Positions 2,798 through 13,290 are shown, counted from the stretch's first letter. The stretch is DNA of 13,290 nt from an uncultured archaeon (GCA_964354495.1 CAYHAA010000032.1:1-13290), one strand, 5' to 3'. The notes: a model not told the origin generated them from the sequence alone. Program-made: numbers and translations.

Positions 2798-3106
2798 TCA
2801 GTAGTAATCCACATCGACATCTTCTCTCGTATAGCCATGGCCTTTGAGATGTTGGCCACCACAAAGAAGCACCATGTTGAACGGGAAGAGGCCAACACGG
2901 TCTCCATCATCCATGACATGGTCAGTCTTCGCGAGATTGCCATTTATGAAGCAGTCCCCGAGGTCGTCGGGCTTTAGGTGGAAACGGGCTGCCAACTGAG
3001 TGAAGGTTTCATTCTTGACGTACTCAATCGTCAGCACAGTATCTTCGCTAGCATGACTGTCTGACACAAGGGCGCGAAGATTGCCATAGAGATGAATCTC
3101 AATCAT
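2798..3106 (-). CDS. Ubiquitin-like beta-grasp (MoaD/ThiS-like) protein with C-terminal extension (102 aa)
   Basis: MIEIHLYGNLR..., FINGNL..., DDGDRVGLFP match the beta-grasp pattern. Internal LLCGG is followed by 18 residues. Stop lies 11 nt upstream of the moaD start, so an operon is likely. Confidence 0.8.
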   Translation of the reverse strand: MIEIHLYGNLRALVSDSHASEDTVLTIEYVKNETFTQLAARFHLKPDDLGDCFINGNLAKTDHVMDDGDRVGLFPFNMVLLCGGQHLKGHGYTREDVDVDYY

Positions 3107-3225
3107 TGATACTTCTCTGCATTCCTGCCGTGAAAGGTGTTTCTCTCTGGTCAAAATAAGGGTATGCAGCAGTCGCTTCAATCTTGGACAAAGTTGGACA
3201 GGTGTTTATATACTGTGCCGAGGAA

Positions 3226-7130: not shown

Positions 7131-7655
7131 ATGACAGGCTGGTTTCAGGCTTTTGTTGATAAGGTGAAGGAGAACATTAAGAAGCTAATTGAGAAAATGA
7201 AAGGCAAAGCAGAAAGTCTCGCGGGTCCAGTGAAGGAGAAAGAGGGCATTGAGAAGCAAAGGGGAGGGAGCATGCTCACGGGATTCAAGAGCGCATTTCT
7301 TGGTGTCGCTGGCGTCATCGCAATCTCATTTGTCATCATAGGTTTCTTGGTTCTGCCGCCATTCTTTGACAGAGCAGGAGATCAGAATCATCGCCCAGAG
7401 ATTACAGGTTTTTACCCAACAGAGCATGTCGATATATCTATTGGGGAAAGCCAAGAATTCAATGTCTCAGTACGTGACCAAGACAATGACTCATTGGTGA
7501 TTTTATGGTATCTAAACCACGCAGTAGTCGAAACAAACATGACTAGTTTTCTTCTCATAGCCACCCAGCAAATGATGGGACCCAACGAGCTTAATGTTAC
7601 TGTGAGAGACTTGGAATACTCAACCTCGTTGGTATGGAATGTGACTGTGGTCTGA
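7131..7655 (+). CDS. Single-pass membrane protein with extracellular Ig/PKD-like beta-sandwich domain (~174 aa)
   Basis: Charged N-terminus, TM helix (AFLGVAGVIAISFVIIGFLVL), then NHRPEI...FNVSVRDQDNDSLVILWYLN...LNVTVRD, typical of archaeal Ig-like repeats. Five N-x-S/T sequons. Confidence 0.7.
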   Translation: MTGWFQAFVDKVKENIKKLIEKMKGKAESLAGPVKEKEGIEKQRGGSMLTGFKSAFLGVAGVIAISFVIIGFLVLPPFFDRAGDQNHRPEITGFYPTEHVDISIGESQEFNVSVRDQDNDSLVILWYLNHAVVETNMTSFLLIATQQMMGPNELNVTVRDLEYSTSLVWNVTVV

Positions 7656-7723
7656 GTCATGCCCACGTCTTCCGGATAATCTAGTAAAATCAATCGCACA
7701 TCCGCTCAGGAGAACATGTGGAA

Positions 7724-8416
7724 CTACTTCACTGCTTTGTGAATGGCTACAACACCGAAGCTCATCATTCTGTAGTCGACTTTTGAGAATCCAACCTCAT
7801 GAAGAATCTTAGACAACTCCTCGGCATCAAAGAATCTGGTGACTGAATATGAGAGATAGGCATAGCCAGTCCTCGATCCCGAGATAAGTCGCCCGAGCGT
7901 TTCGACAACTTTCCTTGTATACAGATGGTATGCGGCTCGGATTGGTGTTGATCTCGGCTGACTGGTTTCAAGATTGATGAATCGTCCTCCTGGCTTCAGA
8001 ATACGATTAAACTCTCTGAGGAACTCCATCAATCGCCCACGGTTTCCAGTGATGTTCCTCGTGGCAAATGAGATTACTACAAAATCAAAAGTGTTTTCGA
8101 GAAAAGGAAGTCGGCGGGAGTCAGCAAGAGAAACAGATGCTTTCCGAAGTTCTGGCTTGCTTCTGGCCCTTGAAATCATGGGAAAAGAAAAATCAGTAAG
8201 AACTATTCTTGTCCCGGGACTAGCGAGCCTTTGGAGATTGACTGCCATTTCTCCAGTCCCGCCACAGACCTCCAACCATAATGCGCCACCGTCAGCCGCA
8301 GCAATCTGCGAGGCTTTCTTCCGCCAAGGAATATCCAAGCCAAGGGTAAGAACATGATTCACTAGCTCGTACCGATTCGCAATCTCTGAGAAGATTGTGA
8401 GAAGCCCTTTGCTCAT
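7724..8416 (-). CDS. menG: UbiE/MenG family quinone biosynthesis C-methyltransferase (~230 aa)
   Basis: FSEIANRYELVNHVLTLGLDIPWRK, SAM motif I LEVCGGTGE, DSRRLPFLENTFDFVVISFATRN, EFNRILKPGGRF, GYAYLSYSV, FGVVAIHKAVK. Confidence 0.88.
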   Translation of the reverse strand: MSKGLLTIFSEIANRYELVNHVLTLGLDIPWRKKASQIAAADGGALWLEVCGGTGEMAVNLQRLASPGTRIVLTDFSFPMISRARSKPELRKASVSLADSRRLPFLENTFDFVVISFATRNITGNRGRLMEFLREFNRILKPGGRFINLETSQPRSTPIRAAYHLYTRKVVETLGRLISGSRTGYAYLSYSVTRFFDAEELSKILHEVGFSKVDYRMMSFGVVAIHKAVK

Positions 8417-8535
8417 TGGATATACACCTATTCGTAAAGAAACCACGTTCTAAGGGACAAATGGGTGAGCAAGATAGTGCCTGTTGATAATGTCGACCAT
8501 GAAGGCTAACACAGACTCTTCTTGGTTTCGTCCTT

Positions 8536-9132
8536 CTAATCCTTTCCGTATAGAAGATGCATTGGCCACCTTCTCGTCGAGAGTCCGATACTGACTGGGT
8601 GGTTGTGTGTTGACAGTGACCCTGAACTCTTGTGAAAGTGGTAATGAGCAATACCTAGACTTGCGATGATATCAGGAAATGGTAGAGGAATAAGCCCCGT
8701 TATCCGCCATATTTCGAGATTGAAGAGGATGAGATAGGGAAGAATGATCTCGGCCAGAAGCAAGACCACGGTAGCCACGGATGCTAAGCGAATGTTCAAC
8801 TTCCCTCGGGAGTACATGAGTGTGTTGGCATAAAGCATCAATCCCACGACCACCCAACTCGATGACATCGTCAGATACAGCAGTGTGTCGCTTATGGCGT
8901 ATGAACCGAAGAGGGAATCATCCCACCATCGAAGCAGGTCCCAACATGGAACAAAATGTGCTCGAGCAACACTAATGAATCCCGGAAGGAAGCACAACAG
9001 TGCATAGGCCCACCATGAAGGAGCCGGCAAACCTACCGCTTCGGCCACAACTAGAGCAGGCATAACAATGGCTATAGGACTGAAGAACGTTATGACCAGT
9101 ACTGCAAGCGGAAACAGGTTTACCTTTGACAT
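8536..9132 (-). CDS. Hypothetical multi-pass membrane protein (198 aa)
   Basis: ATG with GAGGA SD; about five hydrophobic segments; no recognised family; core-like GC (32/60 in the line starting 8761). Confidence 0.65.
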   Translation of the reverse strand: MSKVNLFPLAVLVITFFSPIAIVMPALVVAEAVGLPAPSWWAYALLCFLPGFISVARAHFVPCWDLLRWWDDSLFGSYAISDTLLYLTMSSSWVVVGLMLYANTLMYSRGKLNIRLASVATVVLLLAEIILPYLILFNLEIWRITGLIPLPFPDIIASLGIAHYHFHKSSGSLSTHNHPVSIGLSTRRWPMHLLYGKD

Positions 9133-9253
9133 TCCTCACATAGCCTGCCCCAGGGCACGTAGTACATATTATCTTCTCTTTTTTCAAACTTCGCATTTCC
9201 GCAGAATGAGTCAAGTAACTGACTTCTCAAACTGCATCAAGCAACCAAAAACA

Positions 9254-9340
9254 GACAACAGAGGATGGAAGTACCACTACAAAACCCTTGGACAACTCTA
9301 GGTACTGTATGAACACACTTTCAGTCTGCACGCCTCGGAC
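9254..9340 (+). repeat. Direct repeat copy 1 (87 bp): 23S rRNA 3' terminus plus downstream flank (minus strand)
   Basis: GACAACAGAGGATGGAAGTAC-16 nt-GACAACTCTAGGTACTGTATGAACACACTTT-CAGTCTGCACGCCTCGGAC. The 31-nt core (9291-9321) is identical in all three copies, and 9291-9333 is identical to 13248-13290 (43 nt). Confidence 0.97.
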
Positions 9341-9424
9341 ATTAGTACAGGTGAGCTGAACACCTCGCCGGAGCTTGGTGCTTACACCCCCTGCCTATTT
9401 ACCTCGTCTTCTACGAGAGTCCTC
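9326..9424 (-). rRNA. rrl: Orphan 3'-terminal fragment of archaeal 23S rRNA (domain VI, H99-H101); not a complete gene
   Basis: Minus strand GAGGACTCTCGTAGAAGACGAGGTAAATAGGCAGGGGGTGTAAGCACC...GGTGTTCAGCTCACCTGTACTAATGTCCGAGG matches the archaeal 23S 3' end. Pairings are intact: H99 GGAC/GTCC, H100 CTCGT-AGAAG-ACGAG, H101 GCAGG/CCTGT and GCACC/GGTGT. The upstream GCATCTAAG landmark (H97 loop region) is absent. The mature 3' end position is approximate. Confidence 0.88.
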
Positions 9425-9704
9425 GTTCCTAGACTCGATGTTACTGTCACCAGCCCCGCACTTCATTCTCGATGGCAGTCACACAGAGCCCTCATTCGGA
9501 TGAAAACGCTCGGCAAGTGGATGTGGAGTTCTTGCTAGACTATTCGAGTATTGCCACTACAACCATCTGTGCAAGTGAAATAGTTACAAGTTTTGTCGCA
9601 GAATATATAAGAGAACATTGTTTGTAATAGAGTGGAATTAGACTGAAATTAGAAATCACCAGATTACATCTTCCTTTATTGGCCAGAAAAAAGAGAGGTT
9701 TTTT

Positions 9705-10181
9705 TTGAACTCACGAACAAAAGAGGTGCTGGATAGTGACTGGATTCCGTCTTCAACTATTGTTTCACTAGTAGTTGGTTCCACTGCCCTTTTCGGGCCC
9801 ATATTCTTCTTTGTTGGTGCAAATCCACATGTTGACCTTGTATTTGAGGTGTATTCTCTCTTCTGGCAGTTATCCTCTCAGGGAGGACCATTAGTATTCA
9901 TTGCAGGATTTTCCAGTACTTATTCATTCTTCATGCCACTGCGAATTTTATATGTTTGGCAACTTCACAGATGCTATGATAGTCGTACATCAAGGCGATT
10001 GACATTGGTTGTTGGATTGATTGCTGAACTCCAGACTCTAATCACTCTCTTTATGATGTCATACGACCCCCTCTCTCCATACCCTCAACTGACTGGTCCA
10101 GTTCCATTGTTGTATCTTATGGGAGTTTTGTTTCTTATTACAGTGCCACCACGAACGCAAGGAAAGGAGTGGAATGATTAG
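9705..10181 (+). CDS. Hypothetical multi-pass membrane protein, paralog of 12685-13248
   Basis: Shared pattern with 12685: YSLFWQL/ESLMWRL, QLHRCY/QFNRYN, VGLIAELQ/VAILSELQ, PVPLLYLMGVLFLITVP/PIPTVLIVSIILLIFVP, then W. TTG start is uncertain. Confidence 0.75.
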   Translation: MNSRTKEVLDSDWIPSSTIVSLVVGSTALFGPIFFFVGANPHVDLVFEVYSLFWQLSSQGGPLVFIAGFSSTYSFFMPLRILYVWQLHRCYDSRTSRRLTLVVGLIAELQTLITLFMMSYDPLSPYPQLTGPVPLLYLMGVLFLITVPPRTQGKEWND

Positions 10182-10232
10182 ATTCTACTAGAGAATCAAG
10201 GGATTTTTGTGGAAGCGCCTGATCCAACGAAG

Positions 10233-10796
10233 TCATGGTTTTCGTTTCATTCTTCTCCGATATAGGACAAGGCTTAGGTATAGAATCAAAAGCGGTATTC
10301 CGGCTATGAGCGAAAGAGGGAGAACAATCTTCAATAGAGCAATATCCGGTGAGATTGGATTGATAGTTGAACCTCCAATTCGAGTGATTGTTAGATTGAT
10401 GTTAATGATTGCGATGTAGCCCGTATTCGTAGCATTCACGGTATAATATGCACTAAATGGGATGAAGGTTGAATTTCGATGCCGAGTGTCACCGCGATGT
10501 AACATAGTCTTCGAGTTCGTATCAGAGCTAATCCTGATTCGCACTATAGCATCAACAATAGATGTATTGATTGGGTCTATATCAGACACAATAGAGTATA
10601 TCGAGTATGGCTGTAGTGTGATTCTTGTTATAAATGATTGATTAGCTGTAAGCTCAAGGTTAGTTCTTTGCAGAATGGGATTGTCCGTAGTTTGAGCTAC
10701 ACAGAATCCTGCCGGTAAGGTAATCAAAACTAAAGTAACAATGGCAATTTGCGTTCTTTTCGAACTCATCGAAAAGTTTCTGTTCCTGAAAGTCAT
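10233..10796 (-). CDS. Hypothetical type I membrane protein (signal/TM, beta-rich ectodomain, TM, basic tail)
   Basis: Hydrophobic N-terminus, sequons NQS/NTS/NST/NAT/NLT, C-terminal TM followed by YRRRMKRKP. Confidence 0.72.
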   Translation of the reverse strand: MTFRNRNFSMSSKRTQIAIVTLVLITLPAGFCVAQTTDNPILQRTNLELTANQSFITRITLQPYSIYSIVSDIDPINTSIVDAIVRIRISSDTNSKTMLHRGDTRHRNSTFIPFSAYYTVNATNTGYIAIININLTITRIGGSTINPISPDIALLKIVLPLSLIAGIPLLILYLSLVLYRRRMKRKP

Positions 10797-10823
10797 TTGC
10801 CTATCAATGTACTCCCTAAGGAG

Positions 10824-11324
10824 TTAATACCAGTACATCCACAACTCCGGCTCTCCTCCGAAGAACCATAAGTCTCTTTGCGCATCAAAGAAGCGGCTAC
10901 TGTCTGTGATTCTGATTTCAAGTGTGGTGGAGGATGCATCAGTAATGGTTACTTGAAAATCCTCGGAAGAGGGACCAATATCGTCTGCATAAGTGTAACT
11001 AGCAGATGAACCCCATCTGTACCATAGCCGCATCAGTTCTGGGTTCTGCGCATCTCCGCCATCGTAATCGATTCGTATCTTATAGACGTCCGCACTCTGA
11101 TCAATGCCATTTATTTGAAACCAAATGTCAAGTCCGTAGGACCACACGGGATTTCCTTCCAGAGCCTCATTATCATCTTCGTCCCAATATCCAATAGTAT
11201 TCTCATAATCATCATAATATTCTACTCCAACATCAGTCCACGCAGCAACAGGTTGAACCACGAATGCAACAATCAAGAGTGCAAAGAATGATGGAAACAG
11301 AAGTCTATCAATAATCTTCTTCAT
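10824..11324 (-). CDS. Secreted hypothetical protein ending FGGEPELWMYWY (166 aa), paralog of 12099-12587
   Basis: Strong SD AAGGAGG before ATG 11324; signal peptide ending VAA-W; about 80 identities in ~140 mature residues with 12099 (manual count). Confidence 0.88.
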   Translation of the reverse strand: MKKIIDRLLFPSFFALLIVAFVVQPVAAWTDVGVEYYDDYENTIGYWDEDDNEALEGNPVWSYGLDIWFQINGIDQSADVYKIRIDYDGGDAQNPELMRLWYRWGSSASYTYADDIGPSSEDFQVTITDASSTTLEIRITDSSRFFDAQRDLWFFGGEPELWMYWY

Positions 11325-11408
11325 AATTCTTCCTCCTTGCAAAGAAATGAACCGACGCCGCCCCTCTTCCCACATTTGACATTTGTTTTCAAGGCCCATT
11401 ATGATTTA

Positions 11409-11846
11409 ATGCATAAGAAGAATATGAGTGTTTTGGCACAGGAGATTTCGGATGCCTATTCTCTCTTTCGGCATAAGATTGCTGCATTGGATCTGGCTCA
11501 TTATATGGTGCAATCTGAGTGTTTGTGGGATGTAGACAAGATTGTGTCAGCGCCTAATCAAGCAGATGAACCCCTTCAGTCGATAATTGTAATGAAATCC
11601 TTTAAGGAAATAATGACAAATCCTGACACTATTTCATTAACGCCCAGAATTCGAGAACGACTGTTCGTATTGCTGCAGGAATCGAAAGGCAGGTTTGAAA
11701 GAGTTGAATGGATTGTGAATGCGATTTCAGGTGCGATTGCTTTTACATCTGATGAGCAAATACAGTCCGCAACATTATCAATACTCAATGTTGGTTATGG
11801 GACTGAGATTTCAAAGAGAATTCGAAGTGATTGTAATTTCTCTTAG
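11409..11846 (+). CDS. Hypothetical soluble, probably alpha-helical protein (~145 aa)
   Basis: Open 438 nt in an AT-rich region, divergent from 11324; amphipathic helical pattern; no family recognised; start could be 11409 or 11424. Confidence 0.5.
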   Translation: MHKKNMSVLAQEISDAYSLFRHKIAALDLAHYMVQSECLWDVDKIVSAPNQADEPLQSIIVMKSFKEIMTNPDTISLTPRIRERLFVLLQESKGRFERVEWIVNAISGAIAFTSDEQIQSATLSILNVGYGTEISKRIRSDCNFS

Positions 11847-11900
11847 AATCCAGATATTGCTGCTATACTCAATAGATTACAAAAGTGATAATGGAGAATA

Positions 11901-11986
11901 GACATCAGAGGATGGAAGCACATTACGAACTCCTGAGACAACTCTAGGTACTGTATGAACACACTTTTAGTCGTCATGCCTCGGAC
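11901..11986 (+). repeat. Direct repeat copy 2 (86 bp), most diverged
   Basis: GACATCAGAGGATGGAAGCAC-15 nt-31-nt core (11937-11967)-TAGTCGTCATGCCTCGGAC; homology stops at GGAC (H99 3' strand). Confidence 0.96.
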
Positions 11987-12098
11987 AGACTGAAGTAGTC
12001 ACGCGATGAGGGAGGATTGTTTAGAAAAACATATATGCAAAAGGAGTGTTATTAAAGCTGGATGTTCTCCTGTAATATCTAGGTGGTGAAGAAGAGGA

Positions 12099-12587
12099 GT
12101 GCGGAAACAAAGAGCGGCTATTTTATCCCTATTTTTGATTAGCATGATAATGATTTTAGGTCTGCCAGTTCTTGCGTGGAGTGATATTGGCGTTGAATAT
12201 TATGATGGTGTCAAAGAAATATACGGCGAATGGTCTGAAAACGATAATACAGCTCTTGAAGAATATGTCGGGCTATGGGCGTACTATTTAGACATTGAAT
12301 TCAATATTACTAATGTAGATCAGAATGCAGACGTCTACAAAATTCGAGTAGATTATGGCGGATCGGATGGCGATGAAGCTATTCAGCTCTGGTATAGATG
12401 GGGTTCGTCTGGTTCTTGGATATATTGTACTACGTTATCTTCTATACAGGATCTCTATTATACAATTACTGATGCATCGAGTACCCTATTACAGATCAAA
12501 ATCATGGATAATACTCGTATTTTTGATTTTAATCGAGACCAATGGGACTTCGGAGGAGAACCCGAGCTCTGGATGTATTGGTATTAA
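12099..12587 (+). CDS. Secreted hypothetical protein ending FGGEPELWMYWY (162 aa), paralog of 10824-11324
   Basis: GTG start after GAGGA; signal peptide ending VLA-W; conserved blocks GVEYYD, ADVYKIR, LWYRWGSS, TITDASST, FGGEPELWMYWY. Confidence 0.88.
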   Translation: MRKQRAAILSLFLISMIMILGLPVLAWSDIGVEYYDGVKEIYGEWSENDNTALEEYVGLWAYYLDIEFNITNVDQNADVYKIRVDYGGSDGDEAIQLWYRWGSSGSWIYCTTLSSIQDLYYTITDASSTLLQIKIMDNTRIFDFNRDQWDFGGEPELWMYWY

Positions 12588-12684
12588 GAATTTGCACAAG
12601 CAAGCCTATTGAATATGATTATTGTCAATTCCAATCATTTGTTATAGGTAGCATTATGATGCGGAAAACTACGGTGACTTAGAA

Positions 12685-13248
12685 TTGAGTGCCTCTAAAC
12701 GCGTTAATTGGAAATTTCAACTAAGTCCGACTGAGGTGATGCTGCTACTGCTGTTTGTGGTTCTCTTCCTTCCTACATTTATCACTCTTCGTAACATATC
12801 GAGTTCACTTGCCTATTCCATCGAGTCTTTGATGTGGCGACTGCTTTTCTACCGTGACGGTTCTGTGGATTTTAGAATTGTTCCCTATTTTTTTATGCTT
12901 CAGGACCATCTACTGAAGTATCTGCTAGTCATTCAATTCAACAGGTATAACCGGCATGCAACAACCAAGATACGAGTTCTATTAGTCGCGATACTCAGCG
13001 AACTCCAGATGTTTCTGCTGATTGATATGCCTCAGATTATTGAAGGGATTCAGGGATTACATGCTTGGACTGCTTTCGTTTGGTATATCCCTATTCCTAC
13101 TGTTCTGATTGTTTCTATCATCTTATTGATATTTGTACCACGTCCGGAGTCTGAACCAATGTGGATTGATAAAGAAGAACAAAAAGCATGGTGGAAAACA
13201 AAGCAGAAAACGACATCAGAGGATGGAAGTACTTCACAAAACCCCTAG
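12685..13248 (+). CDS. Hypothetical multi-pass membrane protein, paralog of 9705-10181; C-terminus overlaps repeat copy 3
   Basis: About four hydrophobic segments; tail W-IDKEEQKAWW; the last 12 codons (TSEDGSTSQNP-stop) lie in the repeat. Confidence 0.8.
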   Translation: MSASKRVNWKFQLSPTEVMLLLLFVVLFLPTFITLRNISSSLAYSIESLMWRLLFYRDGSVDFRIVPYFFMLQDHLLKYLLVIQFNRYNRHATTKIRVLLVAILSELQMFLLIDMPQIIEGIQGLHAWTAFVWYIPIPTVLIVSIILLIFVPRPESEPMWIDKEEQKAWWKTKQKTTSEDGSTSQNP

Positions 13249-13290
13249 ACAACTCTAGGTACTGTATGAACACACTTTCAGTCTGCACGC
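13212..13290 (+). repeat. Direct repeat copy 3, cut by the window edge; predicted flank of the intact 23S rRNA gene (minus strand)
   Basis: GACATCAGAGGATGGAAGTAC-15 nt-31-nt core (13248-13278)-CAGTCTGCACGC; identical to copy 1 over its last 43 nt. Confidence 0.95.

Follow-up and report, generated by a model that had tools for sequence, protein, structure and literature searches.

The stretch of DNA analysed here (the window; 13,290 nucleotides, nt) is the entire contig C32 of G000, a 3.3-Mb archaeal genome in 51 contigs with a completeness of 97.7%. G000 belongs to the Thorarchaeota and is thus an Asgard archaeon, and the match of one window gene to a Thorarchaeota-only protein cluster agrees with this assignment. 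Towards the right end of the window, core genes adjoin an array in which three co-oriented direct repeats, copies of the 23S rRNA 3′ end with the trailer behind it, separate two small AT-rich gene modules. Its architecture identifies the array, with high confidence, as an additive island at the 3′ end of an RNA gene.

Three copies of the 23S rRNA 3′ end in the window

Repeat finding placed the three copies at 9255-9333, 11901-11979 and 13212-13290 with ungapped identities of 67–85%, and BLAST extended them to 9247-9341, 11897-11987 (up to about 11990) and 13207-13290, with E values from 1e-19 to 1e-27. The intervals between the copies are AT-rich, with 38–43% GC compared with 43–55% in bins of the remaining contig, and a preliminary description of the window, which had reported three direct repeats around two AT-rich modules, was thus correct on this point. 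A core of 31 nt, AAAGTGTGTTCATACAGTACCTAGAGTTGTC (minus strand), is identical in all three copies, and both of its flanks vary. Rfam returned no match to large-subunit rRNA in the window at the gathering threshold, nor at E ≤ 10, and for this reason the identification of the repeats as 23S 3′ end plus downstream flank, which had also been proposed before and which we confirm, rests on homology to the 23S gene that G000 carries on contig C17.

The copies lie on the minus strand and differ in how far they reach into the 23S gene. Copy 1 consists of a trailer (9247..9333; 92% identity to the resident trailer, C17:12600-12700) and a displaced 23S 3′ fragment of about 190 nt (9334..9520) that covers helices H98 to H101. 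Positions 9323-9429 align to 23S positions 3003-3109, the last 107 nt of the G000 gene, with 96% identity, and weaker but clear homology in the alignment reaches about 9520, at the base of helix H98. Copy 1 thus does extend into the 23S gene, as had been claimed, but by about 190 nt and not by about 100 nt. The homology of this fragment starts at ACATCCACTTGCC, the same 23S position as that of a second fragment, C17:1-203. Copy 2 (11897..11990) comprises about 9 nt of the 23S end (TGTCCGAGG) and a complete trailer, and is the most diverged of the three, with 83–85% identity to the resident trailer and to copy 1, compared with 92–94% to the resident trailer for copies 1 and 3. Copy 3 (13207..13290) is a trailer with 94% identity to the resident one and is cut by the contig end.

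Over all of its 87 nt, the resident trailer base-pairs with the 23S leader (duplex energy −65 kcal/mol); an oligo-T run closes it, and all relatives examined in the genus have conserved it behind their resident 23S gene. These three properties identify the 87-nt flank as the 3′ strand of the stem at which pre-23S rRNA is processed, together with an oligo-T terminator, and copy 1 retains both. The earlier treatment of the flank as plain downstream sequence therefore has to be abandoned in favour of a functional, genus-conserved element. Because the trailer is functional, every insertion must carry a replacement copy of it, and since an insertion behind the gene must leave a complete trailer on that gene, the 3′ boundary of all copies is fixed. 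Indeed, each repeat is a 5′-truncated 23S 3′ end (~9 to ~205 nt) joined to a complete 87-nt trailer, and the copies lie co-oriented downstream of 23S with a common 3′ end at the terminator and differing 5′ boundaries. The 5′ starts span from within the trailer to 205 nt into the 23S gene. The hexamer AAATAG was considered as a motif before the fragment starts, resembling a transposon-adjacent motif (TAM), and was rejected when a listing of 15 boundaries gave no common motif.

The variable hairpins of the copies match the resident trailers of different relatives, namely that of G017 for copy 1, that of G012 for copy 2 (where the two are identical) and that of G002 for copy 3. Hybrid copies put the crossovers within the conserved core (e.g. 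the G012 copy at L035:6991), the trailer and the first 100–190 nt of the next module are common between genomes while the module interiors differ, and a type-B trailer and the gene of a YdjM-family membrane protein are found together in both G012 and G014.

The intact 23S rRNA gene and the inferred order of the locus

The only full 23S gene in G000 lies on the minus strand of C17 (12687-15795; Rfam model positions 1-2987) and is followed by an intact trailer. The first 41 nt of C17 equal the last 41 nt of C32, which are also the last 41 nt of copy 3, and BLAST found the repeat at no other contig end of G000. Following this overlap, C17 runs on into a 203-nt 23S 3′ fragment (C17:1-203), which is 98.5% identical to the resident gene over the last 137 nt, and then into a TnpB gene. 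In all, a stretch of 12.4 kb separates the fragment from the resident trailer and gene. This island encodes a TnpB-family nuclease of 550 amino acids (aa), a divergent giant protein of 1902 aa, a HEPN-like protein, a protein of 397 aa and a TPR protein, of which the 1902-aa and 397-aa proteins have no family match.

From the two contigs and the synteny in relatives we infer the following order: 23S gene and trailer, 12.4-kb TnpB island, 23S fragment and copy 3, module 2, copy 2, module 1, 23S fragment and copy 1, and core genes. The preliminary description had predicted an intact minus-strand 23S gene just to the right of the window. Such a gene is present upstream, on C17, but it lies about 12.6 kb away, past the 12.4-kb TnpB module, if the join between C32 and C17 holds. 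Copies 2 and 3 had been taken to mark successive acquisitions, and while the additive geometry stands, age does not simply rise with distance, copy 2 being the most diverged (84% versus 92–94%).

The 23S sequences at the locus also differ in helix H98, which is long in the resident gene, short in the fragment beside TnpB, as in most relatives, and a long/short hybrid in fragment 1 of the window. The expansion in the resident H98 amounts to about 50 nt (C17:12793-12900), and among the compared genomes only G017 has it too. It sits exactly where the flank of the neighbouring TnpB would otherwise match.

Filled and empty sites in relatives and metagenomes

The relatives support an order in which the 23S gene is followed by its trailer, by zero to three modules and then by the same core genes. 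The genes of C32:1-9246 are among those found downstream of 23S in relatives, which upholds the earlier view that copy 1 adjoins core genes; orthologues of the UbiE gene of the window (cluster cl1) lie downstream of 23S in 9 of the relatives' loci examined. In G012, a single contig leads from the 23S gene through three copies and two modules to the UbiE gene, and G017 and G006 each have one copy followed by core genes common with the window. Among relatives with a match, copy number ranges from 1 to 4, with 2 or 3 in G022, G009, G015, G012 and G001, and empty sites, where one copy is followed by core genes, are present in seven genomes (G017, G006, G010, G003, G016, G005 and G004). The side upstream of 23S is syntenic in those relatives whose contigs extend there. 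Gene content thus varies between relatives and metagenome strains, as had been supposed, and single-copy sites exist.

A scan with the trailer core recovered 40 metagenome contigs, about half of them with 2–3 co-oriented copies, and over all loci 89 trailer copies lead into 56 unrelated following sequences. One core gene family, cl3, stands directly behind the resident trailer in one contig, and elsewhere, in several genomes, has a decayed remnant of the distal trailer in front of it, as would be expected if an original end had been displaced outward.

None of the 27 other genus genomes searched contains module 1 or module 2, save for the first 186 nt of module 1, which match G009:C181:118-303 directly after a trailer and are placed likewise in contigs L089 and L060. 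In four metagenome runs from two studies, module 1 is present at about 98% identity and flanked by the repeat, and module 2 is absent; the same runs contain other junctions, including a 62-nt fragment directly against another trailer.

A class-wide rRNA search, in which two candidates per genome were scored, also returned isolated 23S 3′ fragments in other genera of the same family, at G050:C69:11484-11797 and G073:C1:1731318-1731606 (Rfam model ~2721-2973). These fragments suggest that the phenomenon extends past the genus.

Copies outside the 23S rRNA locus

The repeat is not strictly tied to rRNA, as two copies were found elsewhere. On C15 of G000, housekeeping genes surround a 23S fragment and trailer that adjoin the gene of a paralogous membrane protein. 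In G017, a 1.83-kb unit upstream of tRNA-Sec, flanked by a 37-nt direct repeat of local sequence, consists of a 34-nt 23S fragment, the trailer and paralogues of the secreted and membrane proteins of the window. G000 has a single-copy, empty tRNA-Sec site at C7:73802-73843, and from the comparison of the filled and empty sites it follows that a stretch of the array downstream of 23S was inserted at another RNA gene. We also looked for an end that the modules have in common and found none: the aligned module ends of G017 and G012 share a gene, and their junctions differ.

Displaced partial copies also exist for a second structural RNA gene, that of RNase P RNA on C7 of G000. The full copy (C7:28603-28942) is accompanied, 2.4 kb away and in the same orientation, by a 261-nt copy of 95% identity (31314-31574), and a third piece of 31 nt lies at 24069-24099.

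Recombinases and TnpB

A lack of recombinase genes in the modules had been noted before, and Pfam searches of the open reading frames (ORFs) in modules 1 and 2 indeed found none. A six-frame Pfam search of the whole of G000 for an orphan enzyme returned no tyrosine recombinase (PF00589), Cas1 (PF01867), Y1 transposase (PF01797) or reverse transcriptase (PF00078). Two serine recombinases, each of 201 aa, are encoded in G000, both on contigs other than C17 and C32. Control genomes score as expected in the same searches, all 14 controls scoring for PF00589. The XerA-type recombinase that would be expected in G000 was not detected, there being no PF00589 match.

The C17 TnpB matches the NCBIfam model guided_TnpB with an E value of 1.7e-25 and a score of 90.1 bits, short of the curated 100-bit cut-off, and the Pfam TNB domain with an E value of 7.6e-12. 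It contains the motifs GVDLG, PEAWTS, CxxC (twice) and NADRN, and retains the RuvC-I and RuvC-III aspartates, a shifted glutamate and the zinc finger. It is not accompanied by a cognate TnpA, with no Y1 transposase in G000 and no serine recombinase on C17.

A TnpB right end adjoins 23S-derived DNA at three independent loci, namely C17:204, contig L085 and G014. On C17, the right end abuts the displaced fragment at the base of H98. On L085, a 125-nt remnant of a right end, 96% identical to that on C17, abuts a 76-nt 23S fragment at ATAGGCAGG. In G014, a TnpB and giant-gene pair lies behind 23S, and the right end abuts the trailer core in antisense. Compared with resident 23S genes, the 20-nt flank of the C17 right end matches those of G012 and G009 at 20/20 positions and those of most relatives at 18–19/20, and its own gene at 15/20. 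The TnpB family is multi-copy; eight paralogues align to a common right end (...GGTCA), beyond which they diverge, and the TnpB right ends carry GTTCACTCA, a motif described for Asgard TnpB groups in a study that left the guide position open (PMC10691335). In G015, a 528-aa ORF beside a 76-nt fragment was considered as a diverged TnpB with a ATGGGTCA end, and was rejected because neither the protein nor the right end showed similarity.

The right end of a fourth TnpB paralogue and an intact tRNA-Gly(TCC) gene meet tail to tail, at the 3′ end of the tRNA gene (C27:7054-7128 and ~7131-8996), and the presumed guide of this TnpB would be antisense to the acceptor and T arm of the tRNA. The tRNA-like flank of the TnpB on C6 gave no tRNA gene match. 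The 1902-aa protein (C17:2233-7941, locus L003), which has no Pfam or NCBIfam match, is arranged head to head with TnpB in four G000 loci as well as in G014; paralogues occur on C6, C27 and C31, and partial ones on C1, C3 and C44. The pair looks like a multi-copy two-gene mobile module.

Proposed growth of the array

The reading that we favour, with a probability of roughly 55%, is that the island grew by successive insertions at the single 23S 3′ end, through recombination across the conserved anchor by host functions, with TnpB perhaps provoking events. Incoming DNA would carry its own 23S end and trailer and recombine with the resident ones, so that the gene would keep a working end, the cargo would land behind it, and the earlier end would be pushed outward. 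The joining would most likely be the work of the cell's homologous recombination across the conserved anchor of at least 90 nt, because the modules and the genome lack the usual integrases, and it could proceed either by a single crossover of a circular piece or by one-sided homology-anchored insertion. Host recombination is also favoured by duplications of variable length, by arbitrary module ends, by crossovers at the places of longest identity and by trailer variants from different lineages. Long repeats would promote deletion and would later have been lost in this way, which would explain that only short fragments remain. With less confidence, RNA-guided double-strand breaks by TnpB may start the events; this is suggested by the right ends that repeatedly adjoin 23S DNA and by the mismatch of their flank with the resident allele. 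In characterised TnpB elements, it is the right end that supplies the guide.

Several observations weigh against this reading. Homologous recombination alone predicts long displaced fragments, and none above about 205 nt was found. The starts of the fragments cluster: the base of H98 has two that are at most 2 nt apart, AATAGG has about four, and a span of 10 nt around ACTAATG has about seven, which hints at some site preference. The 37-nt duplication at tRNA-Sec is not explained by 23S homology. Neither a circle nor an empty site in the same population nor an excision joint was found, and the joints in metagenome contigs fit a tandem array equally well. The join between C32 and C17 is a probable one, based on the 41-nt overlap and on synteny. 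As for the enzymes, absence at the level of Pfam is compatible with an unrecognised recombinase, for instance the 1902-aa protein beside TnpB. A role for TnpB meets two further difficulties: tblastn with the C17 TnpB and the giant protein gave no match on C32, nor did BLASTN with the right end in 9521-13206, and no common TAM-like motif precedes the three TnpB-linked targets.

A larger part for TnpB is conceivable, if rather doubtful, in the form of RNA-guided homing of cargo islands into rRNA genes. The first ~20 nt of the displaced 23S or trailer fragment would then be the guide, the replacement 3′ end would be unmatched by it, TnpB would cleave naive 23S genes, and repair would copy the island in. 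If this were the case, no transposase or integrase would be needed, the modules of the window would be remains after loss of TnpB, and arrays at other RNA genes of G000 would have been seeded in this way too. That such homing is the whole mechanism, each island bringing a TnpB, a guide that targets the naive 23S end and a replacement 3′ end that resists cleavage, and modules 1 and 2 being decayed islands, appears unlikely to us. The layout on C17 is as this account predicts, with a resident 23S gene that has a mismatched long H98, the trailer, cargo, TnpB, its right end and a displaced short-H98 fragment; L085 would be a decayed version of it, and G014 has the same pair behind 23S. Fragment 1 of the window starts at most 2 nt from the 23S position at which the flank of the C17 TnpB starts, the nuclease has kept GVDLG, PEAWTS and NADRN, and homing of TnpB through break-induced recombination is established for IS605-family elements (PMC10690162). 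However, modules 1 and 2 contain neither TnpB nor a right-end remnant, most fragment starts in relatives have no TnpB end next to them (the G015 candidate having been rejected), the three targets have no common TAM, and the guide position of this Asgard TnpB group is not experimentally determined (PMC10691335).

We also regard as improbable a site-specific recombinase acting in trans on the 31-nt trailer core, either an unrecognised enzyme or one of the IS607-type serine recombinases, in the way that Ccr acts for recombinase-less elements of the staphylococcal cassette chromosome (SCC) type. The identity of the core in all G000 copies amid variable flanks, the inferred crossovers inside it, the two serine recombinases in the genome and the clustering of fragment starts would all be expected under this model. 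Yet several displaced copies lack the core and consist of the distal trailer alone, the insertion at tRNA-Sec does not target the core, and neither a tyrosine recombinase nor Cas1 was found in the genome. Moreover, the core is the part under the strongest constraint, owing to its pairing with the leader, and offers the longest identity, so that homologous recombination would favour it as well.

Still less credit is due to template switching during replication or repair at heavily transcribed RNA genes, by which a short local duplication would form around a templated insert without any mobile element. A stalled fork or a break would lead to copying from another place, with a return to a point slightly upstream. 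Such a process would account for duplications of varying length (37 nt at tRNA-Sec and 35 to 290 nt at 23S), for arbitrary module ends, which show no shared terminus in the alignment of G017 and G012, and for an insert in G017 that resembles a copied stretch of the array downstream of 23S; it would also fit cargo genes that are paralogous to local families, and the similar duplications at the RNase P RNA gene. On the other hand, the modules are AT-rich and absent from other genus genomes, which fits import better than local copying, and the copies have trailer variants that are resident in different relatives, a sign that DNA came from other lineages.

Lastly, an assembly artefact that strung strain variants together via the shared repeat is hardly credible: although the assembly is in 51 contigs, the window ends inside a repeat and strains with different modules co-occur, the repeats of about 90 nt are below typical read length, each copy has its own variants (copy 2 being merely 84% identical), and independent assemblies have the same structure, with arrays of 2–3 copies within single contigs (G012, G001, L055, L074, L093 and L094).

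Comparison with known systems

Islands at the 3′ ends of tRNA and tmRNA genes are textbook examples of integrase-dependent insertion. The array resembles them in that the 3′ end of an RNA gene is the target and is restored, in the displaced 3′ fragment at the far boundary, in the co-oriented arrays and in the empty sites of relatives. It differs from them in its target, the 23S gene with its trailer, in the lack of an integrase in the modules and, at the level of Pfam, in the genome, and in fragments whose starts are spread over many positions instead of a single crossover site. Bacteria, too, are known to accumulate elements without a recombinase in tandem at the 3′ ends of genes; examples are pseudo-SCC elements at rlmH in staphylococci, and cis-mobilizable elements (CIMEs) beside integrative and conjugative elements (ICEs) at fda in streptococci. 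Here, too, small modules without a recombinase stand in tandem and are bounded by direct repeats from the 3′ end of the target gene, whereas those bacterial elements are served in trans by a known recombinase, Ccr or the ICE integrase, with a short and defined site of action, and neither such an enzyme nor such a site was identified here.

Integron arrays are similar in their one to three promoter-poor cargo genes per unit, their repeats in the same orientation and their high turnover between strains. The array described here is, however, not an integron: IntI is absent (no PF00589 match), the 23S gene heads the array, the repeats are homologous to the 23S end and not to attC hairpins, and the cargo lies in either orientation. 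There is also a likeness to the homing of TnpB in IS200/IS605 elements and of homing endonucleases in rRNA introns, in that a nuclease directed at the unoccupied allele would promote copying, and the flank on C17 matches the naive 23S gene and not its own. In contrast to these, what presumably travels along here is an island of several genes, which takes the place of the gene's 3′ end and is neither spliced out nor excised, and the window modules carry no TnpB.

The nearest published case in Asgard archaea is that of HeimM2 and HeimV2 of Candidatus Heimdallarchaeum, both of which are inserted between the single 16S gene and a tRNA gene (PMC8813620). As in the array described here, Asgard elements lie directly after an rRNA gene, and two different elements occupy one site; unlike here, the gene is 16S and one element has a homing-endonuclease-like gene, and the cited passages of that report describe no array of displaced rRNA fragments (PMC8813620). 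Given these elements, the statement in the preliminary description that no described archaeal system of this type was known is not established, and neither is its proposal that the modules were captured in trans. A literature search found nothing on elements or arrays at the 23S 3′ end, on rRNA-directed TnpB guides or on TnpB of Thorarchaeota; its coverage was incomplete, and it is weak evidence of novelty.

What sets the locus apart is that the geometry of tRNA islands is found on a single Asgard 23S gene including its trailer, without a detectable canonical integrase, Cas1, HUH transposase or reverse transcriptase. The pattern recurs over the genus and in many metagenome contigs, and thus represents a widely sampled system for gene gain without classical integrases, near the eukaryotic stem. 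It indicates that the most conserved gene of the cell can act as a recombination anchor common to species, and the repeated contact between TnpB right ends and 23S makes RNA-guided homing of cargo islands a testable hypothesis. On the practical side, contigs break at the array, and displaced rRNA fragments can mislead rRNA annotation.

Cargo and neighbouring genes

Module 1 (9521..11896; 2.4 kb, about 41% GC) encodes a 158-aa membrane protein (9705-10181, plus strand), a 187-aa anchored surface protein with a signal peptide and a C-terminal anchor (10233-10796, minus strand) and a 191-aa secreted protein (10824-11399, minus strand). Module 2 (11991..13206; 1.2 kb, about 39% GC) encodes, both on the plus strand, a 162-aa secreted protein (12099-12587), paralogous to the one at 10824-11399, and a membrane protein of 187 aa with four helices (12685-13248), the last codons of which extend into copy 3. 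The latter matches a Thorarchaeota-only protein cluster with an Atlas score of 0.94, and the 158-aa protein of module 1 is a more distant member of the same Thorarchaeota-specific membrane family. None of the ORFs in the modules has a Pfam match, and the Atlas gave nothing usable for the secreted protein. Apparent inverted repeats within the array (10824-10949 versus 12462-12587) were rejected as structural elements, as they turned out to be the oppositely oriented genes of the paralogous secreted proteins. The modules of relatives encode leucine-rich-repeat proteins, a glycosyltransferase together with an epimerase, a methyltransferase and a YdjM-family membrane protein, with no mobility gene among them, and this cargo is typical of flexible islands.

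On the core side, the first gene beside copy 1 encodes a 198-aa multi-pass membrane protein without a Pfam match (8536..9132, minus strand), and its sequence is also found after a trailer copy in metagenome contig L092. A UbiE/COQ5-type methyltransferase gene (7724..8446, minus strand; PF01209, E 1.3e-50) is a conserved anchor gene downstream of 23S.

Two further observations concern the rRNA genes themselves. A search of the whole of G000 with the small-subunit rRNA model RF01959 gave no 16S match. The 23S gene of G000 is free of inserts, and those of three relatives contain an insert of about 0.8 kb with one ORF of 197–238 aa each, at 10572-11354 of L038 (G009), 389-1181 of L047 (G004) and 4409-5209 of L051 (G025). 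Two of these inserts are at position 2577/2578 and one at about 2051, and they are probably introns with homing-endonuclease-like genes.

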